Source of the DNA: an uncultured Clostridia bacterium
GTDB lineage: Bacteria > Bacillota > Clostridia > Oscillospirales > Acutalibacteraceae
DNA length: 41,112 nt
Direction of reading: 5' to 3'
Assembly (NCBI GenBank): GCA_937897215.1
Contig: CALCBQ010000049.1
Location: 1-41,112, forward strand
Made by a program: the position numbers and the translations under genes. Below are positions 8,879 through 40,243 of the stretch, piece by piece. The stretch's first letter is position 1, and the number at the start of each line of letters is the position of its first letter. Under the pieces are notes generated by a model that was not told where the DNA came from, did not search any database, and saw only the letters and a program-made list of their open reading frames with translations.

Positions 8879-10906
8879 TTATTCTTCTCTTTTCTTAATC
8901 ACTACGCCCGTTGCAATTATTGTTCCTGCAAGGACTGCTACTGCAGTTGCAACTGTTGAAATACTACGGTTTGTTTTTGGAATATCGCCCTCAACATTTT
9001 CTGTGTTATTTTCGCTATCATTACTTGTTGTTGATTCGGTTGTATTCTCTGTTGTTGATTCAGTTGTATCATCTTCAGGTGCAGTTGTGCTTTCAGTTGG
9101 TTCTTCATCAGGTACAACATCGGCAACCTGTGAAAGATAACCGAATCGTGTCATCTGTGCATCTGTCATTGGTGTAAAGCAGAACACAGATGTTGTGTAT
9201 GTAAGCTGAGTATTAAGAAGCGAATATGTAATCTGCACTTCAAAAGGTATATTCGCATTTTCAAAATCGTTATTTGTTGCTTTGAATTTATACACTTTTC
9301 CTTTTGAAATTGTAAGACCTTGAGCATACTCAAAATCTATATCTGCACCAACAGCCTCAATTGACCAGATTACCACATCTGCTTCAACCGACATATTTTT
9401 AACTACAAGTGCTGTGTCTTTTGTTGAATGATAGCCCGAACTTGTATTATCAAATCGTGCATAAAGAATTTCGCCATTATTCTGAGACATATTGAACTGT
9501 GGGTATTCTTTGCTTGAGTAAACATTGACAATGTCGCCCCACAAGAAATCGTGAACAAGGTTCTTTGAGTATTCGTCGTGCATAATCATACCATGGCCCT
9601 GATTTCTCACATACCAAGTTGAATCCGGTAAAAATCCGGTTGATGCATCAATATCGAATTCAGGAGAAATATGATAATGATTTGGATTATCACAAACTGT
9701 GTTTGCTTGTGTATAATCACTTGCAAAACTTTCGTTTACAGGTGCGCAATCTGACCCTGATGAAAGATATGTATCAATAAGAATATCAGAGTTGTATTTT
9801 CCGTTTGGCGAAGTATAACCGTTACCTACAACATAACCAATCTGCACACCATCTTCAGTTAATTCTGCAAGTTTATTTGCAAGACTATCTCCGCCATTAG
9901 AAATCAATGTATGATAAGCAGTTGTATCAACATAAAGTTTTTTGTTATCTACAACATTAAGTCCTGTATAACTTATTGCTTCTTCAAAATAATTATATGG
10001 CACAAAATCCCAGAGTGATGGAATTGAAATAATGCCATTCCAAAGGTCTGGATATGTGAGTGCATTATTAGCAACATCAACTATACCGTCAGTTGAAAGC
10101 AATTGGAAAATCCATTCCCAATCCTTTTCATATTCAAAACCATGCTCAATAAACGCTACAATTTCATCAAGCGGAACATTAAGATATTCGCCTGTAAAAA
10201 GCGAGCCACAAAGAGTAGTTCCCAGCGTTGCAGGATTGCCAAACATTGCTCGTCTAACATCGCCTTTATCCCCATAGAAATAAAGATATGTAGTACCGTA
10301 TTGACCGCCGTGGCTTAGCCCGTAAATATCAACTTTATCTGAACCTGTAATTTCTTTTACTTCTTGAATGTATGCATCAAGTGCAGCGGCATAATCAAGC
10401 TGACTTCTACGCCAGTCAAAAGTAAACCCGAAAACATTTTCAGCACCCACTTCTTCTATTGCCATATCTGCAACTACTCTTTCAGGAATATACTGCTCCA
10501 TACCATTTTCAATAAGTGTTGAAGCACGAGTTGCCGCCGCGCCACTTGGATATGGTACAAGGTTATTCTTTGATGTACCATCAGGATTCATACCAATTGG
10601 TGCAAGATACTCTTTAATCTTTTTAGCAAGTTCAACAGTCAAATCCGCCTGATTAAGTGTAACATCTGCAAGCAATTCAACAACATCTGCACCGATATTG
10701 TCAAAATTCAACGGCCAAGCAAGTTGAACATTTCCGTTTTCATCAAAAATTGGTTCGCCGTTTTCATCTGCATAGGCAAGATTAGGGCCTGAATAGCCCT
10801 GCAGAATTACTACGGGTACTTTTTCTTCTGCTCCTGCAACAACACCTATTGAAACTGCAGAAACAATTATAAGAACTGCGAGAATAACTGATAAAATCTT
10901 TTTCAT
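8879..10906 (-). CDS. Cell-surface alpha/beta-hydrolase (lipase/esterase, LCAT-like) with Thr/Glu-rich stalk and C-terminal anchor
   Basis: Signal peptide MKKILSVILAVLIIVSAVSIGVVAGA and nucleophile elbow GLSHG (DIYGLSHGG). The C-terminus has TESTT-type low-complexity repeats, then IPKTN, a hydrophobic helix and KKREE. Confidence 0.8.
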   Translation of the reverse strand: MKKILSVILAVLIIVSAVSIGVVAGAEEKVPVVILQGYSGPNLAYADENGEPIFDENGNVQLAWPLNFDNIGADVVELLADVTLNQADLTVELAKKIKEYLAPIGMNPDGTSKNNLVPYPSGAAATRASTLIENGMEQYIPERVVADMAIEEVGAENVFGFTFDWRRSQLDYAAALDAYIQEVKEITGSDKVDIYGLSHGGQYGTTYLYFYGDKGDVRRAMFGNPATLGTTLCGSLFTGEYLNVPLDEIVAFIEHGFEYEKDWEWIFQLLSTDGIVDVANNALTYPDLWNGIISIPSLWDFVPYNYFEEAISYTGLNVVDNKKLYVDTTAYHTLISNGGDSLANKLAELTEDGVQIGYVVGNGYTSPNGKYNSDILIDTYLSSGSDCAPVNESFASDYTQANTVCDNPNHYHISPEFDIDASTGFLPDSTWYVRNQGHGMIMHDEYSKNLVHDFLWGDIVNVYSSKEYPQFNMSQNNGEILYARFDNTSSGYHSTKDTALVVKNMSVEADVVIWSIEAVGADIDFEYAQGLTISKGKVYKFKATNNDFENANIPFEVQITYSLLNTQLTYTTSVFCFTPMTDAQMTRFGYLSQVADVVPDEEPTESTTAPEDDTTESTTENTTESTTSNDSENNTENVEGDIPKTNRSISTVATAVAVLAGTIIATGVVIKKREE

Positions 10907-11039: not shown

Positions 11040-12272
11040 TTATTCAGCTGTTTCTTCTACTTCCCAACCAAAATTGTAAGTAAGTGAAGATGTGCAAGGG
11101 AATTCTACAACTACTGTGCCGTATTTTGAGAGCGCGCCTGTAAATGTTACATTTGCAGTAATAATCATATTCTTTTCATAAGTTGCATAAGTCATCTGGT
11201 CGTTAACTGCGTTAAAGCCTGCCATAATTTTGCAAGGTGCAAATGCAATCTCAAATGAGTTGACTGTCATATATTTTTCTGCAACCTTAAACTGTTCTAA
11301 AATACCGTCTTTTTCACGAATTGAGAATGCTTTTGTTACGCTTGCTTCTTCAGGTTTAACCATAATGCCGATTGTTCTGTAAAGTTCTGATGGAACAAAA
11401 ATATATTCGCCATCTTCGTCTTCTGCATTATTGCCCTTGTCATCAAGGTCATGAACTAATGTAGGAACAACAGATGTATAAATAGGATAAGTAACAATAC
11501 CTGTTTCTGCGTCTGTTGTTGTGTAAAGGTCTGCGAGTGTAAGTGTGCTTGCATTCTTCTGACCAAGAGGATAAATGATATTTGTCAAATCCTCGTTGAA
11601 ATCAGTTGCAACCAGGTCATCCTCGTCGCCTTCTTTAACCTGATACTTTTCTTCATTAGAAATGTTCATAAGGTATTTGCCGATATCTTTAAGAGCCATA
11701 TCTGCATAAAGGCGGAATGCAGCACGAAGTTCTGGCTGATTATCAAGAAGATTGCCTTCTGTATCTCTGAAATAAACAGTAACATCCTTATAGCTAATTG
11801 AGCCATCCTCTTCTTTGCCTTCACTACCACCATGGTTAATCCAGAAATTTTCATAGTATGAAACACGAGCTACGCCTGTTGTTTTGATTTCGTTGATTTT
11901 TTCATTAAAGTAATCAAGAACATCCTGCTGATTGCCTGTAAACTGTGCCCATTCTCCTTCAGAAGCAAGGGCCAGAATATCTTTGAAGTATTCTTCATTT
12001 CCGAATTTTGAAACCAGCTCATAATATGAAAGCTTTACAGTTTGTTCATCAGTTTTTTTATTTGTATTTTCAAAAAGGATTGCAAGTTTGTCGCCAGGTA
12101 AAACTTTTTTTAATTCGCCATATGTAAACTCAAAATATACATCTTGCAAATCAGTTTTAACGGTTACAGGAGTTGGTCTTTTAACTTCAGATGTACCACA
12201 ACCTGCAAAAGTTGCTATCATAAGAGCTATAACCATTACCACGCTTAAGATTCTCATAACATTCTTTTTCAT
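11040..12272 (-). CDS. Lipoprotein of unknown function (410 aa)
   Basis: Signal peptide with lipobox (MIATFAGCGT). No recognisable catalytic motifs. It lies 22 nt downstream of the M28 gene, so the two are probably co-transcribed. Confidence 0.8.
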   Translation of the reverse strand: MKKNVMRILSVVMVIALMIATFAGCGTSEVKRPTPVTVKTDLQDVYFEFTYGELKKVLPGDKLAILFENTNKKTDEQTVKLSYYELVSKFGNEEYFKDILALASEGEWAQFTGNQQDVLDYFNEKINEIKTTGVARVSYYENFWINHGGSEGKEEDGSISYKDVTVYFRDTEGNLLDNQPELRAAFRLYADMALKDIGKYLMNISNEEKYQVKEGDEDDLVATDFNEDLTNIIYPLGQKNASTLTLADLYTTTDAETGIVTYPIYTSVVPTLVHDLDDKGNNAEDEDGEYIFVPSELYRTIGIMVKPEEASVTKAFSIREKDGILEQFKVAEKYMTVNSFEIAFAPCKIMAGFNAVNDQMTYATYEKNMIITANVTFTGALSKYGTVVVEFPCTSSLTYNFGWEVEETAE

Positions 12273-14611: not shown

Positions 14612-14647
14612 TGACAAATCAAAAAAGCCACTCGTGTTGAGTGGCTT
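14612..14647 (-). terminator. Intrinsic terminator ending the large surface-protein operon
   Basis: Minus-strand AAGCCACTC-aacac-GAGTGGCTT followed by TTTTTGATTTG. Confidence 0.75.
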
Positions 14648-14665
14648 TAATTTTTGGTTAAATCT

Positions 14666-15736: not shown

Positions 15737-16234
15737 TTAAGCTTCATAAGCTACTGTGTATGTGATTGTACCAGTATATGCGCCAACGGGAGCAGCATCA
15801 AAACCTGCAACTGTAATTGTTGCATCTGTACCACCAACATCAGATGCTTTTGCACCGTCATTTACACCTGTAAATGTTGTTTCACCTGCACCAGCAAGTG
15901 TGTATTTAAGTGTTGCTGTTGTTTCTGCGTTTTTCATAACGCCATTGTTTGCATCGTCAGTATCTGAGTCATAGTTTACTGCAACTTTAAGGCTTGCACC
16001 AACAAGAAGCTGTGATGTAACTGTATAGCCTACTTCATAAGCTGTTGTTTCATCATCCCAAGCAACAGAAATTGTTGCAGGAATTTCAACGGTATATGAT
16101 GTGTCAGTTGATTCGTTAAATGATGTTTCAACGTTTACTGTATTGTCGCCAAGAACAGCAGTTGCTGCAAATGCAGGAACTGCAACTGCCATCATCATTA
16201 CGAGTGCTAATGCAATAGAAATAATCTTTTTCAT
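15737..16234 (-). CDS. Small secreted paralog P7 (165 aa) of the tandem family
   Basis: Signal peptide MKKIISIALALVMMMAVAVPAFA. Family motifs YTVEIPATISVAW, YTVTSQL, LKVAV, LKYTL and C-terminal VGAYTGTITYTVAYEA. Confidence 0.85.
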   Translation of the reverse strand: MKKIISIALALVMMMAVAVPAFAATAVLGDNTVNVETSFNESTDTSYTVEIPATISVAWDDETTAYEVGYTVTSQLLVGASLKVAVNYDSDTDDANNGVMKNAETTATLKYTLAGAGETTFTGVNDGAKASDVGGTDATITVAGFDAAPVGAYTGTITYTVAYEA

Positions 16235-16261
16235 AATAACTTACTCCTTTGAGTATAAAAA

Positions 16262-16747
16262 TTAAACGATTTCTGCTGTGAATGTAAGTGTATCTGTGTA
16301 GTTATCGATTGCAACTGATTTCCAGTCACCAAGAGCAATTTTAACTGTTACACTTGCAGTATCATCATAAACTGCAGAAGGTGCTGTAAATGTTGCGTTA
16401 TCAAGTGTGTAAGCAAGTTCGCCACCATTACTTGTCATTTTGTAAGCTGCGTCAGCGTCAGCAACTGTAACTTTAACAGCTTCGCCTGTTTTAAGCTGAC
16501 TTGCAACTGTATATTCAATGTCTTTTGATTCTGTTTCCCAAGGAAGTGTCTGAGTTGCAGGAATTGTAACTGTGTACCAAGCAACTTCAGTATCGCCGAT
16601 ACCGTCGTTATCAGTATCTTTCTTTGTGTCTGTATTGATGATTGTGTCGTTACCTGCGTTTGAGCCACCTGTAACAGCAGCAAAAGCAGGAACGCAAATT
16701 GCCATCATCATAACAAGTGCCATTGCGAGTGCTAAAATCTTTTTCAT
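16262..16747 (-). CDS. Small secreted paralog P6 (161 aa), with DxDxDG loop
   Basis: Signal peptide MKKILALAMALVMMMAICVPAFA. DTDNDGIGDTE insert at aa 44-54. Motifs YTVTIPATQTLPW, YTVASQL, VKVTV, LAYTL and YTDTLTFTAEIV. Confidence 0.85.
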   Translation of the reverse strand: MKKILALAMALVMMMAICVPAFAAVTGGSNAGNDTIINTDTKKDTDNDGIGDTEVAWYTVTIPATQTLPWETESKDIEYTVASQLKTGEAVKVTVADADAAYKMTSNGGELAYTLDNATFTAPSAVYDDTASVTVKIALGDWKSVAIDNYTDTLTFTAEIV

Positions 16748-16766
16748 GTTAATTTACCTCTTTTTG

Positions 16767-17231
16767 TTAAATATTTGTAAGCTCTGCGCTGAATGTTAAC
16801 GTTCCTATATAGTTATCAATTGAAGCTTTGTCCCAATTAGCAGTAGGAATTTGCACCACTACGCTTGATTTTTCTGCATTTTCAGGAAGAATAACAGATT
16901 TTGTTGTAGTGTACTGATTTGTACCACTCTTTAATGAATATTCAAGGAACGCAGTATTTGCTGCATTTTTCATTTTGCCGTCTGCATCAGCATCAACTGT
17001 AACTTTTACGCCTTTACCTGTTGCTAACTGACTATAAACTGAATATTCAACCGCTTTTTCGGTTTGTCCCCAAGTAATTGTTGCAGTAGCAGGAATTGTT
17101 ACTGTAAAAGATGCGCCAACTGTTGAGCCGTCAACTCTTACAGGAGTACTACCAACATATTCAGCAAATACAGGAACACAAATTGTGAACATTAACACGA
17201 TTGCAAGAGCCAATGAAAGTACTTTTTTCAT
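16767..17231 (-). CDS. Small secreted paralog P5 (154 aa)
   Basis: Signal peptide MKKVLSLALAIVLMFTICVPVFA. Motifs FTVTIPATATITW, YSVYSQL, VKVTV, LEYSL and YIGTLTFSAELTNI. Confidence 0.85.
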   Translation of the reverse strand: MKKVLSLALAIVLMFTICVPVFAEYVGSTPVRVDGSTVGASFTVTIPATATITWGQTEKAVEYSVYSQLATGKGVKVTVDADADGKMKNAANTAFLEYSLKSGTNQYTTTKSVILPENAEKSSVVVQIPTANWDKASIDNYIGTLTFSAELTNI

Positions 17232-17251
17232 ATTAAGCCCTCATTTCAAAA

Positions 17252-17719
17252 TTATGCATTAACAAGTTCTGCTTCAAATGTGATTGTTCCTTCATAAGTT
17301 GCAATTGAAGCAGCTGCCCATTCACTTGCATCAATTGTAAGATTGAATGCATGAGGTTCGTTGTTTACAACTGCACTTTTTGCAAGACCTGTTGTAGCGT
17401 CAGCAACTGCAAATTCGATTGTTTCGTTTGCAGCGTTTGTAAGGTCTTTTGATTTTGCAAGAGTAACTTTTACGCGTTTGTCTGTCTGCACCTGACTTGT
17501 AATCTTGTATGTGCCTTCTTTTGTTGTGTCGCCCCAAATAAGGTCAACTGATGCAGGGATTTCAACTGAATATGTGCCGTCGCCCTTGTCAGTAATACCG
17601 TCAACTAAAACTGTTGAATTGCCTGACTGTGTTGTAGCATTAAGTGTGCCTGCAAAAGCAGGAACCATAATCGCCATCATCATAACAAGAGCAAGAGCAA
17701 TTGAAATAATCTTTTTCAT
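17252..17719 (-). CDS. Small secreted paralog P4 (155 aa)
   Basis: Signal peptide MKKIISIALALVMMMAIMVPAFA. Motifs YSVEIPASVDLIW, YKITSQV, VKVTL and YEGTITFEAELVNA. Confidence 0.85.
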   Translation of the reverse strand: MKKIISIALALVMMMAIMVPAFAGTLNATTQSGNSTVLVDGITDKGDGTYSVEIPASVDLIWGDTTKEGTYKITSQVQTDKRVKVTLAKSKDLTNAANETIEFAVADATTGLAKSAVVNNEPHAFNLTIDASEWAAASIATYEGTITFEAELVNA

Positions 17720-17744
17720 AAATCTTATCTCCTAGCTGTTAAAA

Positions 17745-18227
17745 TTAAGCGTCAACAACTGTTGATGTAAATGTAAGTGTATCGCTATAAGTGTCGATAG
17801 CAGCAGCATTCCAAGCTGATTCTTCAACAACAATGCTATATGTGAATGTTGCATTTTCAGCTGTAACAACAGGGCTTGTTGTTTTTGCTGTAGTTGTACC
17901 AGTAAGTGTGTAAGCAAGAGTAGCGTTTGTAGCGTTTAACATATTGAGTCCATCGCCTGTATCAGCAACTACAACCTGAACACATTTACCTGTTCTGAGA
18001 TTTGAGTCAACTGAATAGCTGAAGTTTGTTGTAACTGTGTTCCAAACAATATTCATTGTTGCAGGGTAAGTAACTGTGTAAGTACCGTCGCCTGTGATTG
18101 CAGATGTATCTGTAACTACCTGTGCAGTACCTGACTGTGTTGTAGCATTAAGTTCAGCTGCAAATGCTGGAACCATAATAGCCATCATCATAACAAGTGC
18201 CATTACTAAAGAAATAACTTTTTTCAT
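17745..18227 (-). CDS. Small secreted paralog P3 (160 aa)
   Basis: Signal peptide MKKVISLVMALVMMMAIMVPAFA. Motifs YTVTYPATMNIVW, YSVDSNL, VQVVV, LAYTL and YSDTLTFTSTVVDA. Confidence 0.85.
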   Translation of the reverse strand: MKKVISLVMALVMMMAIMVPAFAAELNATTQSGTAQVVTDTSAITGDGTYTVTYPATMNIVWNTVTTNFSYSVDSNLRTGKCVQVVVADTGDGLNMLNATNATLAYTLTGTTTAKTTSPVVTAENATFTYSIVVEESAWNAAAIDTYSDTLTFTSTVVDA

Positions 18228-18257
18228 AATCTATATCTCCTTTAATTATTTATAAAA

Positions 18258-18758
18258 TTATACTCTTTCAATTTCTGCTGTGTATGTGAGAATATCTTTA
18301 TATTCTTCAACAACTGCTGAATTCCAGTTATCTGCAGTAATATTAACATTAACTGTCTTTGTTGCTGCAGGATAAATTGTAGGTACTGTTGAATTGAAAG
18401 CAGCGCCTTCGCCTACGAGAGCGTATGCAATTTCATAAGCACCGTCATTTGTTTTCATAACGCCTGCACCTGATACTGTAACCTTAACTCTACCATCTCT
18501 CTTAAGGTGTGATTCAACTGTGTATGAAACATCAGTGTCTTCTGTACCCCAAGGGATTGTTGTGTCAGCAGGAATTGTAACTGTGTATTCTTCTGCATCT
18601 GTGTCGCCGATACCGTCATCGTCAGTATCTTTTAATGTTGATGTGTTGATGATAACATCTGCCTCATCAGGATTTGCATTAAGTTCTACTGCAAATGCAG
18701 GAACCATAACAGCCATCATCATAACAAGTGCCATTGCGAGTGATAAAATCTTTTTCAT
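18258..18758 (-). CDS. Small secreted paralog P2 (166 aa), with DxDxDG loop
   Basis: Signal peptide MKKILSLAMALVMMMAVMVPAFA. DTDDDGIGDTD insert at aa 44-54. Motifs YTVTIPADTTIPW, YTVESHL, VKVTV, IAYAL and YKDILTYTAEIERV. Confidence 0.85.
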   Translation of the reverse strand: MKKILSLAMALVMMMAVMVPAFAVELNANPDEADVIINTSTLKDTDDDGIGDTDAEEYTVTIPADTTIPWGTEDTDVSYTVESHLKRDGRVKVTVSGAGVMKTNDGAYEIAYALVGEGAAFNSTVPTIYPAATKTVNVNITADNWNSAVVEEYKDILTYTAEIERV

Positions 18759-18797
18759 AATTGTTTTCTCCTTTATATAAAGATTAAATTTACTATT

Positions 18798-19247
18798 TTA
18801 GACCGCATCGGTATATTCAGCAGTGAATGTTAAAATATCACTGTGTTTACCGCTTGCGGCATGAAGCCATTCATTATCTTCAACCTCTACTGATAGAGTG
18901 AAGCTTTCACCATAATCACCAGGGAAGAAAGAGATGTTGCCGCTTAATAAACTGTATGCGATAGTTTTCTCACTATCTTTTTCGTTTACCAAATTATAAT
19001 TGTTTTGCGAAGAAACTGAAACATTTACCATTTTGTCAGGTTCAATAAGCATTTTTGTTGCTGTTACTTCGCCAATATCCATAGCAGTTGTCTGCCACGG
19101 AATTTCAATGTCTGCAGGATAAGTCAACTCGTATTCTACTGCATCAGCCTTTGTGGAAATCTCCATTGACTGGTTACCTGCAAATACTGGTGTAACGCAA
19201 AGTGTAAGCATTACAATCGCTAATCCTACGGAAAAGAATTTTTTCAT
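18798..19247 (-). CDS. Small secreted paralog P1 (most divergent member)
   Basis: Signal peptide MKKFFSVGLAIVMLTLCVTPVFA. Motifs YELTYPADIEIPW, VNVSV, IAYSL and HSDILTFTAEYTDAV. I prefer the ATG at 19247 because GGAGGAG lies 9 nt upstream; the ORF-track ATG at 19256 abuts the Shine-Dalgarno. Confidence 0.8.
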   Translation of the reverse strand: MKKFFSVGLAIVMLTLCVTPVFAGNQSMEISTKADAVEYELTYPADIEIPWQTTAMDIGEVTATKMLIEPDKMVNVSVSSQNNYNLVNEKDSEKTIAYSLLSGNISFFPGDYGESFTLSVEVEDNEWLHAASGKHSDILTFTAEYTDAV

Positions 19248-19268
19248 TTCTGTCATCTCCTCCCCTTA

Positions 19269-22200
19269 TTAACTTGTTACGTCGACTGTATAAGTCAACT
19301 GCGTACTATATGCGCCAACAGGAACATTGTCCCAAGCGGTTTGCTCAATCTTAATGCTTGGTTTATCTGGTGGTGTTGTGCCTGTTGCCACATCGCCTGT
19401 AAATGTTGTTTCTTTAAAGTTTGTTGCCGTGAAAGCAAGTGTATGTGTGCCTGTTGAATCAACAAGCTTACCTGCTTCTGCACCTGAATCTTCAACACTT
19501 ACTAAAAGTTTTTTGTTAGCAAGTGATGCTTCAACTGAGTAAGAAACATCAACATTATCAGTTGTGTCCCAATCAACCTGAACTTTTGCAGGGATTGTAA
19601 CTGTGTAAGCCGTAGCAAGTGTACCAGTAAATGTTACAGGTAATTCCAGTGTTGCAATCGGAACAAGGTCTGCGCCTGTAAGCCCCGCATCAATATCTGC
19701 AGTTTCATAAACATTAAAGGTAATTGAGCCTTCATAAACTGCATCTTTAGGAACAGCACTTGCAATAGTTGAGTCAACTGCAATTTGAAGCGGAACTCTT
19801 GCAAAAACTTCGTCAGGATACAAGTTATCGTATTCTCCCAATGTCAACGGAGTATCTGCTGTAAGACCGTCAACAGTGAATGAGTTAAGGTCAGCAAATG
19901 TTGTGCCCGAAGTTTGTGTAAGCTTTAAATCTGAAACTGCTTGAAGTGTAACTGTTGTGTCAAGCAATGCTGCAATATACGACAAATCAACATAAGCAGT
20001 ATCTTTCATTGACTCTTCGTCGTTATTATTAAGTGTAACTGTAGCCAATGAACTACCATCTGTTTCAGCATCCATAATTGAAATATCACTTACAGAGAAC
20101 AATCTGACAATTTTCTGTTCAAGCTCATAAAGCTCTTCAACATTATAATAAGCAGGTAAAAATGAGTTGTATTCGTCAAGAATGTCTTTTACATATTGAA
20201 GCTCATCTGCTGAGAAACGAACCCTGTTTGCAATATGTTCACTTGCAATATTATAAACTGTCTGCAATTTTTCTTGGAAAGTAAGAATACCACCTTTTAT
20301 TTCCTCACCATCAATGTTATAGGTTTCGGTATTTTTAAGGAAATAAGTGAAACCACGGGATGTATTCTTAAGCTGTGGATAAATTGAACCGTCGTCAATA
20401 GAAGTTTTTGAATAATATTGTAACGGACTATAGTTATCTCCAAAGAATTTTTCTACACTATCTCTGTCAGCGATGCTTAAGAAATTACCAATTTTATAAT
20501 TATCAGAATCAGTAACACTTTCGTCCTTATCATCAAGTATACCGTCATCTTCATAATCGTATTTCACATTATACAAATCGGTAATCTTAGGAAGGAATGC
20601 AAGAGCTTCATTCTTGATGTTTTCAAGAGTTACAGTCATTCTCATTGCCATATTATAGGCATTTAAGAACTGTTCTTTCACCGTTGGGTCAAGAACGGTA
20701 TTTTTCTGACTTACTGTATATCTGCTGTAACTTTCTTTATAGTATTTAATAATTTCTTCAGCTTTAGCCTTGTCAATTCCCATAGAAGCATAGTTTGGAA
20801 TCGGCACTTTATTACCTGCATCATCTTCGCCTATAACAAATCCCGGATAAGGAATGTCACTTTCGCCGTCAACTGTAGTTGTTCTTATAACTTCAGGAAG
20901 AGAGTTTACAAAATCCGTAAGCTGAGCAGGGTCATAATTAGGCGGCAGAATTTTCGTAGTGTCATTAGCATATTCTGCATATGAATCAAGAACCGCCTTT
21001 GCTTCTGTTACCTTTCCCTGTTGGAAAGGCACAAGAGCGTTATACTTTGCAAGTGCATCATCATATCTCGCTTTAATTGTTGCTGCATCATAAGGGTCAA
21101 TAGCCTTAACTGCCTCTTCAAACTGCTTAGCAGGAAGTGATTTTGCATTAAATACTTCTGCATAAGATTTGTCACTTCTTGTTGAATAAGCTGAATACCA
21201 ATCTGAATAAGTAAAACCTACATTATCGAAAATAACGCTCTTCTCATCAAGAGAATCGCCATTTACACCTGCAATACAGAACTGAACAGCAAAGATGTTG
21301 TTCAAATATGTTGCATTTTCGTCCATCTTGGTTTCGCTGGTTGTCATACCCAAAATCGAACTTTCCTTAACCTTAATGTGATAAAGAGGAATCATAATAT
21401 ATCCCTTATATCCATCCAGACCAAGCGCGTCTCCCCAAGCAGAGTTTTGGGCTGAATTAAATACATACTGGCTAGTTGTGTGGTTAAGAATCCATTGGCC
21501 TTGTGTTGGCGAACCTTCCTTGGAATCAAGAATGAAGTATTTCCAGTTTTCTTTTTTGTAATTTTCACCACCAAGAGTGGCATCGCCCATATTAACACGA
21601 GCCTTAATAAAGCGACCGTTTCCATCGTGTGTAAAAAGATTAACTGTAAAATGGAAGTTTTTAATTTTAGAAAAGTCTACATAGAAAACGATTGAAAGTG
21701 GGGTCTTTTCAGTACCACCTGTATATTCTCCCTGAGCAAGTCCACCAAGGTTTACTCCTGACATATTGTTGCTATAGCCAGCGCCTATTGGGTTTCCATC
21801 TTTTGTAAGCGTAACTGTATGGTAAGAACCATCGTTTTCAGATGCAGTAAACGCACTATCTACATAAAGGTTTGCACCCTTAGATTTCATATATCCTTCG
21901 TTCGTAATGGTTGCCCAAGATGCATTATAATTCACCTTGCCATCCATTGCCTCTTGACTCTTATCCTCATCTGTTGTTACATATCCATAATAGTCACTAT
22001 CTGTAATATTAGCCGTGCCATTTGTTGTGTAAGTAACAAGACTCTTAGTATGTCTCCAGTCATTTGCAAGATTACTTGTACCTGCTACCACACCATTGGC
22101 ACTCTGAAATCCTGTAGTGTAAGCATCTTGGTTATCTTCAAGCTGCCAAGCTTTTTCACCAATTTCGTATTTCTCAAAATCATTGAATACTATGAACGGA

Positions 22201-24434
22201 TTGTCTGCAAGCTGTTGACCAACTATAAAGTCGTCTTCTATTTTTTCAGTACCATCAAGGAGTGCTACATATTTAAGGATTTTTTCTTCTTCAGCTTTAC
22301 CTAACATATCAAGCTGACCAATGTTTAAGAGAGCATACGCTTTCCAGATTTTAATGATTTCTATACGAAGAGCATCACTAACAGATGAAATATTTTCAGG
22401 TGCAGGAAGTTTTTCCATAGCACGAATAATAAGAGGAACAAGTTCGTTTCTATCTGCATTAGCACTACCATAAGTTCCTGCTGCTACGCACTTTTCATAA
22501 GCATCCCAAGCTTTTGCCCAGGAATCTCTGCCAAGCTTCTCAGCCGCTGCCGCAAGACCTATGCCATCACCATCGTCCGTCTTATCAAGAGATAAGAATG
22601 CGGTATCTCTACCCTTTGACTCATAAATTTGTCTATATGTTTCAATTAAATCAAAAATGTACTCGATTTCACGATAGTCAGCCCAGTCAGGGTCTTCTAT
22701 ATATTTATCAATCTCATCAAAAATAATTCTTGAAATTTCTAATGCTTCGTCATAATAAACTGACATAGGGTCGCCGGTGTTTGGTTTATTGTTAAGAGTG
22801 TTCTCTGTATACTTATCATACTTATCGTCATTTTCACGATAGAAGAAGATGTTATCAACATAGAAGCTATGTTGAAGACTGTCTGCTGAACAACCCTCAA
22901 TAGAAAAACCTGCGTTGTAGATATCTTCAATAGCTTTAAGACCTGCTTCTCTGTTCTGAACCATACCATTTGCTATGTAAGCACGGTCAGCTGAATAATT
23001 TCCCGTTGTAACAGTTGTCTTTGCTTGAGTCTCATCAAGTGGAACTGCAAGCATAAAACCTGCTTTTGAATAATCAATAGGAGGATTACCGTTTGTGTAG
23101 CTTTGCTTCAAATGTGTAATTCCGTCAGCATTGAACAAATATAAGTGTCTGTCGCCTCCATTCATAAAACCTGAACTTGAGCGTAAACCTCTGCGGTGAA
23201 TCAGAAGTGCATCCTGTATACTTGTACCCGCTTTGTCAACAGTAATTTTACCAAAAGTCATTGACCTTAGCCAATTTTGAACATCAGAATCCTGAACGGT
23301 GTTATTAATACCACTTTTATAATCGTGTCCTGCCGCCAAGTCCTGATTACTGATATCTATATAAGAATCAGTTTCCGAACACATAAACTTAAGAGGTACA
23401 CGTACATAACCTTTGAAGTTGCCAATATCAGCAGTACCATCAGCATTAAGCATAACCTTATTCCATCCACCGTCTTCACGCTGAACATATACATAAGGGT
23501 CCTCGCCTGTGTATGTTGGAGCCGCTGTACCTTTTGTTGAATAAACTATAGAACCAACTCTCTGATAGGTATCAAGAGTTGTATCATCATCTATCCACTC
23601 TAACCACATTTTTTCATTTGTACGAAGTCTGAAAGATACGCCTTTAAGCTCTACATTTGTAAGGTCCATCCAATACCACATTTCTGTAGCACCCTTATAA
23701 TCCCATGTTGAACGAGAATAAGAGGTGTCAAAAATCTGTGTGCTTGTTGGCTGATTATTCATTATAAAACGAAGGGCCTTGGTATCACCAATATTATCTG
23801 TCAAATCCTCTGTACCGGCTTCAGACGCAGTTCCCATATAAAGTAGTTGACCGCCTGTAACCACACCGTCGTCTGTTCCACCACTTTCAAAAGTCATAAT
23901 TTCACGAACGGCTGTATTACTTGTTGAAAATCCTTCAAATTTTTCAGGGTCAAGACCGATTGCAGGAATATCCGAAACAGTTGCATACATTGACTGTGAG
24001 AACCAATTTTCGTTATCAACTGCTGTGATTGTTACGCTGTAGCGATTGTTCTCAAAATCAATTGTGCCAATATCGGCTGCCTTGAAGGTTGCTGATGTTC
24101 CTGTTACTTTAATTGTATCAAGAACATTCTTTTGGTGAACCGCATTCTTCGCACCCATATCAACAAGTTCAAGAATATAAAAAGCAATAGTTGTTGTCTC
24201 ACCCTTGAATGTTTCTTTAGGTGTAGCTGCCGGAAATTCTACCTGAATATTTCCGTCATCATCAAGCCACGCATCAGCACCTTGTTTAATAGCATCCTCA
24301 CTGAAATATGGTGCAGGGTCATAGGAGCCGGGAATTATTTCCGCGCCCACCATCATAAACGGTATGGATGCAATAATCATTACCAACGCGAGTGCGATAG
24401 CTATGCACTTTTTGGAAGATATTTTTTTCTTCAT
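19269..24434 (-). CDS. Giant secreted surface protein (1721 aa) whose C-terminal module is homologous to the small paralogs
   Basis: Signal peptide MKKKISSKKCIAIALALVMIIASIPFMMVGA. Two internally duplicated beta-sandwich-like modules (aa ~165-533 and ~745-1076) end in FYVDNIFFY and VIFDNVGFTY. A long helical Tyr-rich middle follows. The last ~113 aa read AYTVTIPAKVQVDW...SYSVEASL...LLVSV...LAFTA...VGAYSTQLTYTVDVTS. Confidence 0.85.
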   Translation of the reverse strand: MKKKISSKKCIAIALALVMIIASIPFMMVGAEIIPGSYDPAPYFSEDAIKQGADAWLDDDGNIQVEFPAATPKETFKGETTTIAFYILELVDMGAKNAVHQKNVLDTIKVTGTSATFKAADIGTIDFENNRYSVTITAVDNENWFSQSMYATVSDIPAIGLDPEKFEGFSTSNTAVREIMTFESGGTDDGVVTGGQLLYMGTASEAGTEDLTDNIGDTKALRFIMNNQPTSTQIFDTSYSRSTWDYKGATEMWYWMDLTNVELKGVSFRLRTNEKMWLEWIDDDTTLDTYQRVGSIVYSTKGTAAPTYTGEDPYVYVQREDGGWNKVMLNADGTADIGNFKGYVRVPLKFMCSETDSYIDISNQDLAAGHDYKSGINNTVQDSDVQNWLRSMTFGKITVDKAGTSIQDALLIHRRGLRSSSGFMNGGDRHLYLFNADGITHLKQSYTNGNPPIDYSKAGFMLAVPLDETQAKTTVTTGNYSADRAYIANGMVQNREAGLKAIEDIYNAGFSIEGCSADSLQHSFYVDNIFFYRENDDKYDKYTENTLNNKPNTGDPMSVYYDEALEISRIIFDEIDKYIEDPDWADYREIEYIFDLIETYRQIYESKGRDTAFLSLDKTDDGDGIGLAAAAEKLGRDSWAKAWDAYEKCVAAGTYGSANADRNELVPLIIRAMEKLPAPENISSVSDALRIEIIKIWKAYALLNIGQLDMLGKAEEEKILKYVALLDGTEKIEDDFIVGQQLADNPFIVFNDFEKYEIGEKAWQLEDNQDAYTTGFQSANGVVAGTSNLANDWRHTKSLVTYTTNGTANITDSDYYGYVTTDEDKSQEAMDGKVNYNASWATITNEGYMKSKGANLYVDSAFTASENDGSYHTVTLTKDGNPIGAGYSNNMSGVNLGGLAQGEYTGGTEKTPLSIVFYVDFSKIKNFHFTVNLFTHDGNGRFIKARVNMGDATLGGENYKKENWKYFILDSKEGSPTQGQWILNHTTSQYVFNSAQNSAWGDALGLDGYKGYIMIPLYHIKVKESSILGMTTSETKMDENATYLNNIFAVQFCIAGVNGDSLDEKSVIFDNVGFTYSDWYSAYSTRSDKSYAEVFNAKSLPAKQFEEAVKAIDPYDAATIKARYDDALAKYNALVPFQQGKVTEAKAVLDSYAEYANDTTKILPPNYDPAQLTDFVNSLPEVIRTTTVDGESDIPYPGFVIGEDDAGNKVPIPNYASMGIDKAKAEEIIKYYKESYSRYTVSQKNTVLDPTVKEQFLNAYNMAMRMTVTLENIKNEALAFLPKITDLYNVKYDYEDDGILDDKDESVTDSDNYKIGNFLSIADRDSVEKFFGDNYSPLQYYSKTSIDDGSIYPQLKNTSRGFTYFLKNTETYNIDGEEIKGGILTFQEKLQTVYNIASEHIANRVRFSADELQYVKDILDEYNSFLPAYYNVEELYELEQKIVRLFSVSDISIMDAETDGSSLATVTLNNNDEESMKDTAYVDLSYIAALLDTTVTLQAVSDLKLTQTSGTTFADLNSFTVDGLTADTPLTLGEYDNLYPDEVFARVPLQIAVDSTIASAVPKDAVYEGSITFNVYETADIDAGLTGADLVPIATLELPVTFTGTLATAYTVTIPAKVQVDWDTTDNVDVSYSVEASLANKKLLVSVEDSGAEAGKLVDSTGTHTLAFTATNFKETTFTGDVATGTTPPDKPSIKIEQTAWDNVPVGAYSTQLTYTVDVTS

Positions 24435-24473: not shown

Positions 24474-25292
24474 TTATTTTACAATAAGGTCTGTTTTAAC
24501 AACAAAATTGTTGAGTGGTGTTCTTGCCTGGTCATAAGAATATGGCTGTTGATGAACAATCGCTTTATATTCTCCTGCCGGGAGTGAACGGGAAATCTTG
24601 AATCTTGAAACTGAATAACCCGGTTGAACAAGCCCTGACTGATAAAGTTTTTCATCAGACTCATCAATAATACCGTTTTCATTACCATCAAGATAAATTG
24701 TGAATACAACAAAGCAGATGCCCTTGTTCTTCTCAGAGTTTGAAAGAATAAAGTTCTGTTCAACCTGACCCGCTTTGAAATTAATCTGAGCAATACCGTT
24801 CATTGTAACATTCTTTGAGCCCATATCTTCAACTTTATCAGGTAAGTCAAGCTCACCTAAACCTTGTTGCTGGTCAGCATCAAGATAATTAGGGTCCGTT
24901 GTGGAAGGTTCATCATCGCCACCACCAATCAACATTCCCAAGCCCGCAATCAAGCCCACAAGAACGAGAAGCCCTAAAACTATCATTGCAACAATGGCTA
25001 TAAGATTATCTTTTTTAACTGCAATAAACGAGCCGGACTCAAGCTCAATATAACCTATTGTTTTATATCTTGCAGAAGTTGTTGACTTGTAAACAATTTC
25101 TTCAATATCATTTGAAGTGATTGTGCCGATTTCATCTTTTCCATAAGCCAACTGACCAACTACACGAATACCACCGTCTGGGTAAAGGGCTTTCATTTCT
25201 TTAACGGTATAACAACCAATTTCAAACCCAGTATCTTTATTATAGTATGACTCTATATAGTCGTTGCCTTGTTTAACATTAAATACTGCCAA
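24474..25292 (-). CDS. Bitopic membrane protein (first gene of the operon)
   Basis: TTG start with AGGAGGG 7 nt upstream. The layout is a ~95-aa N-terminal cytoplasmic domain, one TM helix (IAIVAMIVLGLLVLVGLIAGLGMLIGG), an acidic linker and a ~135-aa extracytoplasmic beta-rich domain ending LPAGEYKAIVHQQPY...VVKTDLIVK. Confidence 0.75.
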   Translation of the reverse strand: MAVFNVKQGNDYIESYYNKDTGFEIGCYTVKEMKALYPDGGIRVVGQLAYGKDEIGTITSNDIEEIVYKSTTSARYKTIGYIELESGSFIAVKKDNLIAIVAMIVLGLLVLVGLIAGLGMLIGGGDDEPSTTDPNYLDADQQQGLGELDLPDKVEDMGSKNVTMNGIAQINFKAGQVEQNFILSNSEKNKGICFVVFTIYLDGNENGIIDESDEKLYQSGLVQPGYSVSRFKISRSLPAGEYKAIVHQQPYSYDQARTPLNNFVVKTDLIVK

Positions 25293-25351: not shown

Positions 25352-25381
25352 ATTTTACCTCAACACAACACTACTTGTCAA
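25352..25381 (-). promoter_or_regulatory. Candidate sigma-A promoter of the surface-protein operon
   Basis: Minus strand reads TTGACA (25376-25381), an 18-nt spacer, then TAAAAT (25352-25357). A perfect TATAAT lies 9 nt further downstream as an alternative -10. The promoter lies just after the terminator of the upstream operon. Confidence 0.45.
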
Positions 25382-25400: not shown

Positions 25401-25440
25401 GAACAGAAAAACCCACGCAAATTCGACAATCTGCGTGGGT
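25401..25440 (-). terminator. Intrinsic terminator after the SPFH gene
   Basis: Minus-strand ACCCACGCA-(12 nt)-TGCGTGGGT followed by TTTTTCTGTTCATTTTTT. Confidence 0.75.
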
Positions 25441-25483
25441 TTTATTAGTTATTAGTCATATTTAGACAATGTGTTTTATTTTT

Positions 25484-36910: not shown

Positions 36911-38566
36911 ATGACAGACTGCAAAAAAATTGCTGAACTTATTTTTAGCGATGTGGACAAGTCCACAGACTATTATGAAGAGCTTTACCCTGCAAGAAAT
37001 CTTCCTGAGGGTGCAAGAGTAACAAGATTTGCTCCAAGTCCAACAGGGTACTTGCATTTTGGCGGACTTTATGCAGGTTTCGCATCAAAGCTCACAGCAC
37101 AAACTACTGACGGCGTATTTATGCTCCGTATTGAAGACACCGACAAGAAACGTGAAGTTGAAGACGGTGTTACAGGTATTGTAACAGGTCTTAAGGCATT
37201 CGGTGTTTCCCCTGACGAGGGTGTTACAGGATTCAGTACAGAATACGGCAACTATGGTCCTTACACACAAAGTCATCGTCGTGCAATATACCGTACATTC
37301 GCTAAAAAGTTAATGGAAGAAGGCAAGGCATACCCTTGTTTCTGTACCCCGGAAGACCTTGATGAAATCCGTGCAAAACAAGAAAATGAAGATATTAAAG
37401 GTTACTACGGCGCTTATGCAAAATGCAGAGATTTAAGCGACGACGAAATAATTGAAAAAATCAACGCAGGTGTTCCTTACACAGTTAGACTTCGTTCAAT
37501 CGGCGATATTTCAAGAAAAATTAAGTTTGACGATATGATTAAGGGCAAAATTGAAATGAGCGAAAATGTGAATGATGTTGTTATCTTAAAGGCTGACGGA
37601 ATTCCAACTTACCATTTTGCTCACGCTATTGACGACCACTTAATGCACACAACTCATGTTGTTCGTGGCGACGAATGGATTGCTTCAGTTCCACTTCATA
37701 TTGAACTTTTCAGAGCTTGTGGATTTAAGCCTGTTAAATACGCTCACATAGCCCCTATTATGAAAGAAGAAAACGGTGGTAAGCGTAAACTTTCAAAGAG
37801 AAAAGACCCTGAGGCAAATGTTTCATACTACATTGAAAAAGGTTACCCTGAAGCATCTGTTAAAGAATATATGCTTACAATTCTCAACTCAAACTTTGAG
37901 GAATGGAGAAAGGCAAACAAAACGGAAGATATCAGTAAATTCCCATTCAACCTTAAAAAGATGAGCGTTTCAGGTGCACTTTTTGATATGGTTAAATTCA
38001 ACGATGTATCAAAAAATGTTATTTCTGTTATGACTGCAAAAGAAGTTTATAAACTTGTTACAGATTGGGCAATGGATTACAACGAAGTGCTTTACGCACT
38101 CTTTGTTGATGATAAAGAAAAAGCAACTGCTATTCTTAACATTGACCGTGATAACCCAAAGCCAAGAAAAGATATTGCTTGTTGGGAAGAAGTAGAAAAC
38201 TACGTTTCATTCTTCTATAACGAACTTTATGATGCAGATTACACTCTTCCTGAACACATAAACCGTGCCGATGCAGTTGAAATCCTTACAAAGTATAAGG
38301 AAATCTATTCTGCAAACGATACAAAGGAAGAATGGTTCAATAAAATCAAAGAGCTTTGTTCTGCGTGCGGATTTACTCCTAATGTTAAGGAGTATAAGCA
38401 AAATCCTGATGCATTCAAAGGTCATGTTGGTGATGTTTCAACAGTTATTCGTGTTGCAGTTACTTCTCGCACAAATACCCCTGATTTGTATTACATTATG
38501 CAAATTTTAGGTGTAGATGAAGTGATGAACAGAATTGACAATGCGATAAATTCATATAAAGCATAA
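36911..38566 (+). CDS. gltX: Glutamate--tRNA ligase (long form, HIGH variant HFGG)
   Basis: Class I signature RFAPSPTGYLHFGG and KLSKRK (KMSKS-type), with a GluRS-type core (RIEDTD, HLMHTTHVVRGDEWI). Confidence 0.9.
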   Translation: MTDCKKIAELIFSDVDKSTDYYEELYPARNLPEGARVTRFAPSPTGYLHFGGLYAGFASKLTAQTTDGVFMLRIEDTDKKREVEDGVTGIVTGLKAFGVSPDEGVTGFSTEYGNYGPYTQSHRRAIYRTFAKKLMEEGKAYPCFCTPEDLDEIRAKQENEDIKGYYGAYAKCRDLSDDEIIEKINAGVPYTVRLRSIGDISRKIKFDDMIKGKIEMSENVNDVVILKADGIPTYHFAHAIDDHLMHTTHVVRGDEWIASVPLHIELFRACGFKPVKYAHIAPIMKEENGGKRKLSKRKDPEANVSYYIEKGYPEASVKEYMLTILNSNFEEWRKANKTEDISKFPFNLKKMSVSGALFDMVKFNDVSKNVISVMTAKEVYKLVTDWAMDYNEVLYALFVDDKEKATAILNIDRDNPKPRKDIACWEEVENYVSFFYNELYDADYTLPEHINRADAVEILTKYKEIYSANDTKEEWFNKIKELCSACGFTPNVKEYKQNPDAFKGHVGDVSTVIRVAVTSRTNTPDLYYIMQILGVDEVMNRIDNAINSYKA

Positions 38567-38578
38567 AGAGGCAAAACT

Positions 38579-40243
38579 ATGGACGAAATTATTACAACTA
38601 CTTCAAATTTTATACACGATTTCATTGATGAAGACCTTAAAAACGGTGTATATAACAAAGTGCAGACTCGTTTTCCACCTGAGCCAAACGGTTATCTTCA
38701 CATTGGCCACGCTAAAGCTATCTGCATTAACTTCAGCACATCAAACAAATACAAAGGCGAATGTAATCTTCGACTTGATGATACTAATCCACAAAAAGAA
38801 GATACAGAATATATTGATGCTATCAAAGAAGATATTGAATGGCTTGGCTTTAAGTGGAACAAGTGTCTTTTTGCATCAAGCTATTTTGATTACATCTATG
38901 AATGTGCAGTTAAACTTATTGAAAAAGGTCTTGCTTATGTTGATGACCTTACTGCTGACGAAATCAGAGAATACCGTGGCACTCTTACAGAACCGGGCAA
39001 AAACAGCCCTTACAGAGAAAGAAGCATTGAAGAAAACCTTGATTTATTCAAGAGAATGACTGACGGCGAGTTTCCTAACGGTGCAAGAGTACTTCGTGCA
39101 AAAATCGATATGGCAGCATCTAACATTAATATGCGCGACCCCGTTATTTACAGAATTGCTCACGTGCCACATCACCAGACAGGCGACAAATGGTGTGTTT
39201 ACCCAATGTATGACTTTGCACACCCATTGTCAGACGCAAAAGAAGGCGTTACACACTCTCTTTGCTCACTTGAATTTGAAAATCACAGACCACTTTATGA
39301 CTGGTTCTTACAGGCACTTGATATAGAAACGCCACCAAGACAGATTGAGTTTGCTCGTCTTAACCTTAACTATTGCCTTACAAGTAAGAGAAAATGCTTA
39401 GCACTTGTAAACGAAGGCATTGTTGATGGTTGGAACGACCCACGAATGGCTACTCTCAGCGGTATGAGAAGACGTGGCTATACACCACAAGCGATTCGCA
39501 ATTTCTGTGAAAAAATCGGTGTTTCAAAAGCATATTCAGTAGTTGATTACGGTCTTCTTGAATCTTGTGTACGTGATGACCTTAATGCGAACGCTCCAAG
39601 AGCTATGGCAGTTCTTCGTCCGCTTAAAGTTGTTATTGATAACTACCCCGAAGACAAGACAGAAACACTTGAGGTTGAAATTCATCCTGAACACCCTGAA
39701 ATGGGTACTCGTAAAGTTACATTCGGCAAAACTTTGTATGTTGAGCAAGAAGACTTTATGGTTGAACCTGTTAAAAAGTATTTCAGACTTTTCCCAGGTA
39801 ATGAAGTTCGTCTTAAGAGTGCATACTTCGTTAAGTGTGTCGGCTATGATGCAGACGAAAATGGTAATGTTACTTGTGTTCACTGTACTTATGACCCTGA
39901 AAGCCGCGGCGGTAATTCCCCTGACGGAAGGAAGGTTAAAGGTACACTTCATTGGGTAAGTGAAGCAGACTCATTTAAAGCAGAAGTTCGTCTTTATGAC
40001 AGACTTTTCAATAAGGAAAATCCATCTGACGAATCTGCCGGTGCGTTCACAGAAAATCTTAATCCTGATTCACTTGTTGTTCTTAAAGATTGTCTTATTG
40101 AAGGTGGTCTTAAAGATGGTCTTAAGGCTGGAGATACTTTCCAGTTTATGCGTCAGGGTTATTTCTGCGTAGATATTACATCAACTGAAGATAATATTGT
40201 ATTTAACCGTACAGTACAGCTTAACTCTTCTTGGGGGAAATAA
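38579..40243 (+). CDS. glnS: Glutamine--tRNA ligase
   Basis: [16 protein letters not shown] (HIGH), LTSKRK (KMSKS-type), [10 protein letters not shown], and a C-terminal beta-barrel anticodon-binding domain (TLHWVS...[12 protein letters not shown]) typical of GlnRS. Confidence 0.95.

Follow-up and report, generated by a model that had tools for sequence, protein, structure and literature searches.

A conserved operon of uncultured Clostridia encodes seven tandem secreted paralogs, a giant protein and two membrane proteins, and may build a cell-surface assembly

Organization of the locus

We describe here a ten-gene unit found in a stretch of 41,112 nucleotides (nt) from an uncultured Clostridia bacterium (contig CALCBQ010000049.1; 'the window' hereafter means this whole stretch), which includes seven tandem genes for small secreted proteins, named P1 to P7. 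The DNA of the window is chromosomal, of low GC content (~37%), and carries housekeeping genes including topA, dprA, infC, rplT and Glu/Gln-tRNA synthetase genes. The unit lies on the minus strand, runs from 25292 to 14666 and encodes successively a conserved membrane protein (gene 1), a giant protein, P1-P7 and a stalk protein anchored in the membrane by its C-terminus (the anchor). Its features are the following (lengths in amino acids, aa):

25408-25443: terminator of the preceding gene, just upstream of the promoter-like site
25352-25381, minus strand: promoter-like site (TTGACA, 18-nt spacer, TAAAAT), the best match of the region (11 of 12 positions), as a consensus match only
24474-25292, minus strand: gene 1, bitopic membrane protein of 272 aa, also the first gene of the cassette in the comparison loci L001 and L011 (see below)
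19269-24434, minus strand: giant secreted protein of 1721 aa with a signal peptide, putative distal or adhesive component
19272-19610, minus strand: eighth copy of the module of the small proteins, forming the C-terminal ~113 aa of the giant protein; all motifs align, and it scores 67.9 bits in a leave-one-out test
18798-19247, minus strand: P1 (open reading frame to 19256), 149 aa from the ATG at 19247, a start backed by orthologs
18258-18758, minus strand: P2, 166 aa, with a DTDDDGIGDTD loop at 18597-18629
17745-18227, minus strand: P3, 160 aa, the paralog chosen for the structure model
17252-17719, minus strand: P4, 155 aa
16767-17231, minus strand: P5, 154 aa, with its own distinct leader variant, conserved in orthologs
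16262-16747, minus strand: P6, 161 aa, with a DTDNDGIGDTE loop at 16586-16618; its nearest paralog is P2 (47% identity in the mature part)
15737-16234, minus strand: P7, 165 aa
14666-15691, minus strand: last gene, 341 aa, putative membrane-anchored base or stalk
14624-14648, minus strand: terminator-like hairpin closing the operon

The ten genes appear to form a single operon, since they are preceded by one promoter-like site and followed by a terminator, and no strong internal terminator was found within the unit.

The seven small proteins share a beta-rich module

The array consists of seven consecutive minus-strand open reading frames (152-166 aa, within 15737-19256), each with a signal peptide and a GGAG-type ribosome-binding site. 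The initial annotation had proposed seven tandem paralogs sharing four ordered motifs, and both points hold: the seven genes encode secreted proteins with homologous mature parts, in whose alignment the four motifs appear in order. The repeat is indeed tandem, but the period measured from start to start is 484-531 base pairs (bp), not ~480-510 bp as first given. In the alignment, the P, A and W of the first motif, a V and a T never vary among the eight module copies (P1-P7 and the C-terminus of the giant protein). The list of motifs can be extended by another conserved strand, TLxYxL, as the fifth. The similarity extends well beyond the signal peptides, as each mature part scores 55-108 bits in a leave-one-out hidden Markov model test, against at most 14.5 bits for 1000 shuffled sequences. 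P1 had been singled out as the outlier, which agrees with its 20-31% identity to the other paralogs. The described contrast between a conserved leader and strands on the one hand and variable loops on the other is likewise recovered: the motifs fall on predicted beta-strands, whereas entropy and gap content are higher in the loops.

Each small protein is essentially one acidic (isoelectric point 4.05-4.8), Thr-rich beta-sandwich module of ~115-130 residues behind a conserved leader, and ends 2-5 residues past the last strand, with no wall-sorting signal. An N-terminal strand (consensus x-V-x-V-D/T-T) precedes a linker of widely varying length; by a crude call of the leader, the region between leader and core spans ~13-54 aa across representatives of the family. 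In P2 and P6 the linker contains a D-x-D-x-D-G loop, and in L011 there is a Pro-rich one of ~45 aa. The P2/P6 insert DTD(D/N)DGIGDT(D/E), located between the N-terminal strand and the core, fits the D-x-D-x-D-G calcium-loop pattern, and P6 weakly matches the calcium-binding domain of anthrax PA (E 0.095).

The eighth module copy, at the very end of the giant protein, lies outside the region covered by the initial annotation. No further copies beyond these eight were found in the window.

Each position of the array is individually conserved

The window was compared with related loci from metagenome-assembled genomes (MAGs): L001, L002, L003 and L006, which provide positional orthologs, the more distant L004 and L005, and L010 and L011. 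The syntenic loci belong to MAGs of uncultured Clostridia from goat and water-deer cecum, including Candidatus Fimenecus sp. The cassette (membrane protein, giant protein, array and, where the contig reaches, anchor) is present in L001-L006, L010 and L011. The distant, high-GC cassette of L011 has a different genomic neighbourhood and retains the first gene (31% identity), a giant protein with the C-terminal module, a P1-like gene after the giant gene and further, larger small genes.

The numbers of small genes after the giant gene are as follows:

Window, L001, L002, L003, L006 and L010: seven
L004: six
L005: ten

A comparison of the array among related MAGs had been called for, and it reveals a copy number varying from 6 to 10, with the middle and distal positions of the array remodelled in L004 and L005. 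Between the window and L001, L002, L003 and L006, in contrast, each paralog has an ortholog at the same position whose mature part is 76-99% identical (55% for P7 against L001), whereas the paralogs of the window are only 20-47% identical to each other. The dN/dS ratio between orthologs is 0.04-0.37 for every copy. Together, the one-to-one positional orthology and these low ratios, which reflect purifying selection, indicate that the duplications are old and that each copy is individually maintained in a role of its own. The proposal of repeated duplication is therefore borne out, as an ancient process. P1 is the best-conserved copy across genomes even though it is the outlier among the paralogs, and it always directly follows the giant gene.

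These data bear on the idea, put forward in the initial annotation, that the copies can replace one another as fibre subunits or act as antigenically variable adhesins, with exposed surfaces that diversify and ends that gene conversion homogenizes. Loops more variable than strands and a copy number of 6-10 among relatives would fit such a scheme. Interchangeable subunits are difficult to reconcile with orthologs that resemble each other at 55-99% (at least 76% for all but P7 in L001) when paralogs within one array do not exceed 47%, and diversifying surfaces are equally difficult to reconcile with a dN/dS of 0.04-0.37 in every copy. Moreover, the seven genes sit in one operon, each with its own ribosome-binding site, and no switching element was seen, although no search was aimed at one. 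We consider this explanation largely contradicted and very unlikely.

The component that is clearly mosaic is the giant protein rather than the small genes. Its orthologs are 56-71% identical by the best tblastn segment, and identity changes block-wise along the sequence: residues 1101-1300 are 98-100% identical to L004 and only 39-59% to L003 and L001, whereas residues 1401-1700 are 94-99% identical to L003, 94% falling to 82% identical to L002, and 18-44% identical to L001 and L004. This pattern looks like between-strain recombination in an exposed component.

Leader similarity and local gene conversion

The leader of the small proteins has 23 residues and ends with VPAFA or VPVFA; its Met-rich core, VMMMA, is unusual. 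At the protein level, the leaders of the window paralogs are 66% identical, compared with 31% for the mature parts. It had been suggested that gene conversion could account for this similarity. However, the frequency with which the same residue is encoded by the same codon is nearly equal in the leaders and the mature parts of the window (0.58 versus 0.60), and leader variants group by position in the array across genomes, not by genome. The main cause of leader similarity is thus a constraint at the amino-acid level, and pervasive gene conversion of the leaders in the window is rejected on the synonymous-codon statistics together with the clustering of orthologs. The equal synonymous likeness of leaders and mature parts also speaks against the homogenized ends that interchangeable or variable copies would display. 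The anchor shares the leader type MKKALSIIMALAIVFAMAIPSFA with the small proteins while its mature part is unrelated (hhalign E 7e-10, for the leader only), which points to a functional requirement on the leader. From these comparisons, the shared leader may mark a dedicated export or sorting requirement.

Gene conversion does take place, but in short, local tracts, which would fit homogenized ends. The near-identity of a leader string between P2 and P6, reported initially, is confirmed: over their first 47 nt the two genes have a single mismatch, and an exact run of 31 nt covers nt 16-46. Two tracts could be delimited in the window:

16701-16731, minus strand: run of 31 nt in the leader of P6, shared exactly with P2 (18712-18742), containing the footprint of a P2-to-P6 micro-conversion
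17622-17645, minus strand: 24-nt tract in P4 (nt 74-97, encoding LNATTQSG), identical to P3 18130-18153

At nt 18, 20 and 23, P6 of the window carries the bases of P2, in contrast to all four orthologs. Compared with the near-identical ortholog of L003, P6 differs at 5 of 69 nt in the leader and at 7 of 414 nt in the rest of the gene (Fisher p = 0.018), and the P2-to-P6 conversion covers the very stretch that had been quoted as an example of leader similarity. In the case of P4, the orthologs of L001, L002 and L006 read LDVN(T/A)QSG where the window and L003 carry the P3 version; the alignment indicates that copying of the 24-nt tract from P3 to P4 took place in the lineage of the window and L003. 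Judging from the sequences, the clearest case of concerted evolution of 5' ends is L005 (15116-20189), in which eight copies have leaders with 87-97% nucleotide identity, against 22-43% protein identity of their mature parts, and in which copies 3 and 4 also share 30 bases upstream. This strong homogenization of the L005 leaders also counts in favour of interchangeable copies.

The membrane proteins at both ends of the operon

The product of gene 1 has a conserved cytoplasmic N-domain and a transmembrane helix (about residues 97-122), from which a disordered linker leads to a beta-sandwich ectodomain of ~120 aa. This ectodomain has an invariant single Cys193, a D/N-rich TIYLDxNxNxxID loop and a QPY motif. 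With 78 homolog clusters at 43-94% identity (at least 50% for near-full-length matches), the protein is far better conserved than the small proteins. It has no sequence match in Pfam or the PDB, and its comparison with the module by hhalign gave nothing. Its AlphaFold2 (AF2) model has a predicted local distance difference test (pLDDT) score of 83, and Foldseek matches of the ectodomain are led by chaperones of chaperone-usher systems (CsuC, FimC, FaeE, DraB, CfaA and Caf1M; E 2e-3 to 2e-2), with a probability of ~1.0 over ~115 aligned columns, followed by pilins and generic immunoglobulin (Ig)-like domains; these matches are below formal significance.

Behind its leader, the anchor has two beta-rich domains and an Asp/Pro-rich linker, and it ends with a C-terminal transmembrane helix and a charged tail that is conserved; it has no PDB sequence match. 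In L004 (9963-11969) and L006 (17761-19758) the protein reaches 666-669 aa, because Asp-rich repeats (type DTDGDGIPD..DDDDDNDG) extend its linker to ~370 residues, compared with ~40 in the window. These repeats look like D-x-D-x-D-G calcium-binding loops and have no Pfam match. In L005, the open reading frame just downstream of the array is not a homologue of the anchor, and no search for an anchor was made elsewhere in that locus.

Breadth of the family and fold of the module

When the proteins of the operon and 56 divergent representatives of the module family were scanned, no Pfam or NCBIfam family scored above threshold, and PDB sequence searches with the module profile, the giant protein, the anchor and gene 1 gave nothing. 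Weak matches to phage head-fibre, tail-tube and M60_C families (E 6e-4 to 0.1) fall below the curated cut-offs, and the neighbouring genes are housekeeping, not phage, genes; these candidates were rejected. We found no description of the module family in the literature on PapD-like or donor-strand systems in Firmicutes and other monoderms.

An exhaustive profile search retrieved 910 clusters (50% identity) at E <= 1e-3, 314 of them at E <= 1e-10. Most members have ~150-180 aa, and many have ~1650-1870 aa with the module at the very C-terminus. In a few members of ~240-470 aa, the module follows an LRR_5 (leucine-rich repeat, LRR) or ubiquitin-like domain, and one gene of the LRR_5-module type lies by itself, not linked to an array. 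Members P0213, P0229, P0164, P0165, P0176 and P0121 carry the module behind ubiquitin-like domains, in which case a signal peptide is not obvious, or behind LRR_5 repeats of the BspA type, and one family protein of 3240 aa gives 39 partial profile matches. The C-terminal location of the module in giant and LRR-containing proteins suggests that it acts as an attachment or assembly module.

The same location makes it harder to view the copies as independent secreted binding proteins, for instance lectin-like or nutrient-capturing ones, that were duplicated to widen a range of ligands and do not assemble with each other. Each copy does come with a separate leader and ribosome-binding site, ligands could bind at the divergent loops, and the window contains no assembly enzyme such as a sortase. 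Yet the gene order is fixed, even distant cassettes keep the genes strictly linked to those of the membrane protein and the anchor, and the most conserved parts of the small proteins are edge strands, not loops, so that we find this explanation quite improbable.

The AF2 model of mature P3, built on an alignment of 65 sequences, is an all-beta sandwich with a mean pLDDT of 77, in which the N-terminal strand is the least confident one. Among the top 50 Foldseek matches of this model in the PDB, ~21 are pilin domains of chaperone-usher systems, which also make up nearly all of the top 12 (E 0.01-0.2, TM-score 0.2-0.42); they include the PapGII pilin domain, CsuE, DaaE, PsaA, CooA, MyfA and type 1 pilus subunits. 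This resemblance to chaperone-usher pilins and chaperones, drawn from predicted models, is a lead and not a classification.

Comparison with known surface systems

By analogy, the closest known organization is that of the WxL/Csc clusters of Lactobacillales and Listeria, which encode small WxL proteins, large WxL proteins and WxLIP (DUF916-DUF3324-transmembrane helix). Such clusters combine small proteins made of the domain alone, a large protein that ends in it and an Ig-like partner with a C-terminal transmembrane helix, and the WxL domain possesses a labile N-terminal strand joined by a loop (PMC9772566, PMC10599100). The present operon similarly encodes several small secreted proteins made of one beta-rich domain, a large protein ending in that domain behind putative adhesive regions and a secreted partner of analogous topology, the 341-aa anchor, with beta-sandwich domains and a C-terminal transmembrane helix. 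The LRR fusions of the module also have a counterpart in the WxL protein ElrA, and its loop-joined N-terminal strand has one in the labile strand of the WxL domain. The combination expected of a WxL/Csc cluster, small domain-only genes with a large protein carrying the domain at its C-terminus, is thus found here at the level of architecture only. The differences are several: 6-10 small genes instead of 1-2, an extra N-terminally anchored membrane protein as first gene, the absence of an LPxTG protein and a host that belongs to Clostridia, not to Bacilli.

It could be proposed on this basis that the module is a WxL-like domain binding the wall non-covalently, the small proteins coating or priming peptidoglycan and the giant protein being held at the wall by its own copy, with no fibre at all. 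The architecture of published WxL clusters (PMC9772566, PMC10599100) and the stand-alone LRR protein with a C-terminal module, reminiscent of ElrA with its WxL domain, would favour this explanation. Nevertheless, hmmscan detected no WxL domain (PF13731) in the eight window copies at E <= 1 or in the 56 representatives at E <= 0.01. None of the Pfam models WxL, DUF916 and DUF3324 matched any of nine window proteins or 56 family members, and DUF916 and DUF3324 are specifically absent from the matches of the 341-aa anchor. Paired W-x-L motifs were not found; the conserved Trp residues lie outside such motifs, in W-x-[TDEQ] and W-x-x-A contexts. Furthermore, wall binding alone would hardly account for 7-10 different domain-only proteins, each of them conserved in its own right, and the proteins are strongly acidic, with an isoelectric point of ~4. 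We therefore regard simple wall binding as unlikely.

A second resemblance is with chaperone-usher pili (Fim, Pap and Csu), which are also encoded by operons of paralogous subunits of ~150 aa with a large tip protein ending in the subunit fold. By fold, the module weakly matches pilin domains, as the gene-1 ectodomain does PapD-like chaperones, and the strand motif Y-x-D/G-T-L-T-F at the C-terminus of the module resembles the F strands of pilins. In the present system, however, there is no outer membrane to cross, no usher-like gene was found in the operon or the window, the base would be a transmembrane protein, the chaperone-like protein has one domain and is tethered to the membrane, and no similarity appears at the level of sequence profiles. 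Among fimbrial, SCPU and DUF4402 sequence families, the sole match is DUF4402 with P7, at E 0.42.

Gram-positive fibres of other types were also considered. Sortase pili share with this operon the encoding of tip adhesin, shaft and base subunits of a Gram-positive fibre in one transcription unit, and were rejected because the window has no Pfam match to a sortase, the small proteins carry no LPXTG-type signal and no pilin motif was seen. TasA/CalY and ENA/F-ENA fibres are assembled in monoderms from small beta-sandwich subunits joined by N-terminal strands or hooks (PMC12357932). They were rejected too: Peptidase_M73, DUF4183 and DUF3992 gave no match, and none of the top 50 fold matches is a TasA or ENA structure. 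In addition, there is no gene for a SipW-type peptidase here, and the small proteins have classical signal peptides whereas ENA subunits have none. Type IV pilins were rejected on domain and signal criteria. More generally, Pfam scans revealed no sortase, usher or dedicated secretion gene in the window.

A putative ordered assembly at the cell surface

The explanation that we favour, with some confidence but short of conviction, is that P1-P7 are ordered, non-interchangeable structural subunits of a heteromeric cell-surface assembly that carries the giant adhesin and is built by the ten-gene operon. The suggestion that the small proteins are subunits of a surface structure is made likely by their signal peptides, by the presence of the same module on the giant protein and by the membrane anchoring of the last gene product. 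In this anchor, the transmembrane helix and tail are conserved, and the length of the spacer is variable. Physical assembly, the order of the subunits, strand complementation and a chaperone role for gene 1 are what we infer from these elements.

In such an assembly, all parts would be exported by the Sec pathway via the shared leader. The modules would then bind one another, probably by beta-strand pairing of the conserved N-terminal strand and the C-terminal Y-x-D/G-T-L-T-F strand, to form a short fibre or stalk bearing the giant protein distally, with P1 as a fixed adaptor to it. The giant protein itself would be the distal and probably adhesive part. At the other end, the product of the last gene could hold the fibre to the cell by its C-terminal transmembrane helix and its Asp/Pro-rich spacer of variable length, and the membrane-tethered Ig-like ectodomain of gene 1 may assist assembly or form part of the base.

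One can go further and imagine that a monoderm builds a chaperone-assisted donor-strand pilus without an usher, equivalent or distantly related to chaperone-usher pili. Beta-strand complementation would link P1-P7 as ordered pilins, gene 1 would encode a membrane-tethered PapD-like chaperone, the giant protein would be a two-part tip adhesin accepting the first strand via its C-terminal module, and the last gene product would be a membrane-embedded terminator or base. This more specific model is tempting, and in our opinion doubtful.

Several observations weigh against the assembly that we favour. Neither the module nor gene 1 has a Foldseek match at E <= 1e-3; the TM-scores are 0.2-0.4 and generic Ig-like folds are among the matches. 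Comparison of the module profile with the Fim pilins of E. coli by hhalign gives a probability of 0.35%. The ectodomain of gene 1 is a single, membrane-tethered domain, compared with two domains in PapD-like chaperones. Finally, the N-terminal strand is contiguous with the upstream domain in multidomain members of the family, so it may be an ordinary first strand of the fold and not an exchanged one.

Whatever the nature of the structure, the module defines a real, conserved and undescribed protein family and operon, sizeable and yet absent from Pfam, NCBIfam and the PDB. It also defines a surface operon that is conserved among uncultured Clostridia of gut and rumen, whose structures for attachment to host or substrate are essentially unknown. 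If the ordered assembly proves true, it would be a new type of Gram-positive surface fibre built without a sortase, and the combination of ordered minor subunits with a recombining giant tip would offer a concrete target for cryo-electron microscopy and colonization studies. If the fold hints towards chaperone-usher systems are real, they would matter for the question of how donor-strand assembly arose and how it is distributed beyond diderm bacteria.

Other genes of the window

Outside the operon, the window encodes a secreted protein of 675 aa without Pfam match (8879-10906), with a GLSHGG (GxSxG-like) motif and a Thr/Glu/Ser-rich linker. Its C-terminus, IPKTN followed by a transmembrane helix and a KKREE tail, resembles a sorting signal of the class-B-sortase type; the anchor has IPDTF before its transmembrane helix. 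A putative lipoprotein of 410 aa (11040-12272; leader end FAGC), without Pfam match and kept in L001, is encoded between an M28 peptidase gene and the gene for the 675-aa protein. Elsewhere in the window, two adjoining genes for class-I aminoacyl-tRNA synthetases of the Glu/Gln type lie in tandem (36911-38566 and 38579-40243).

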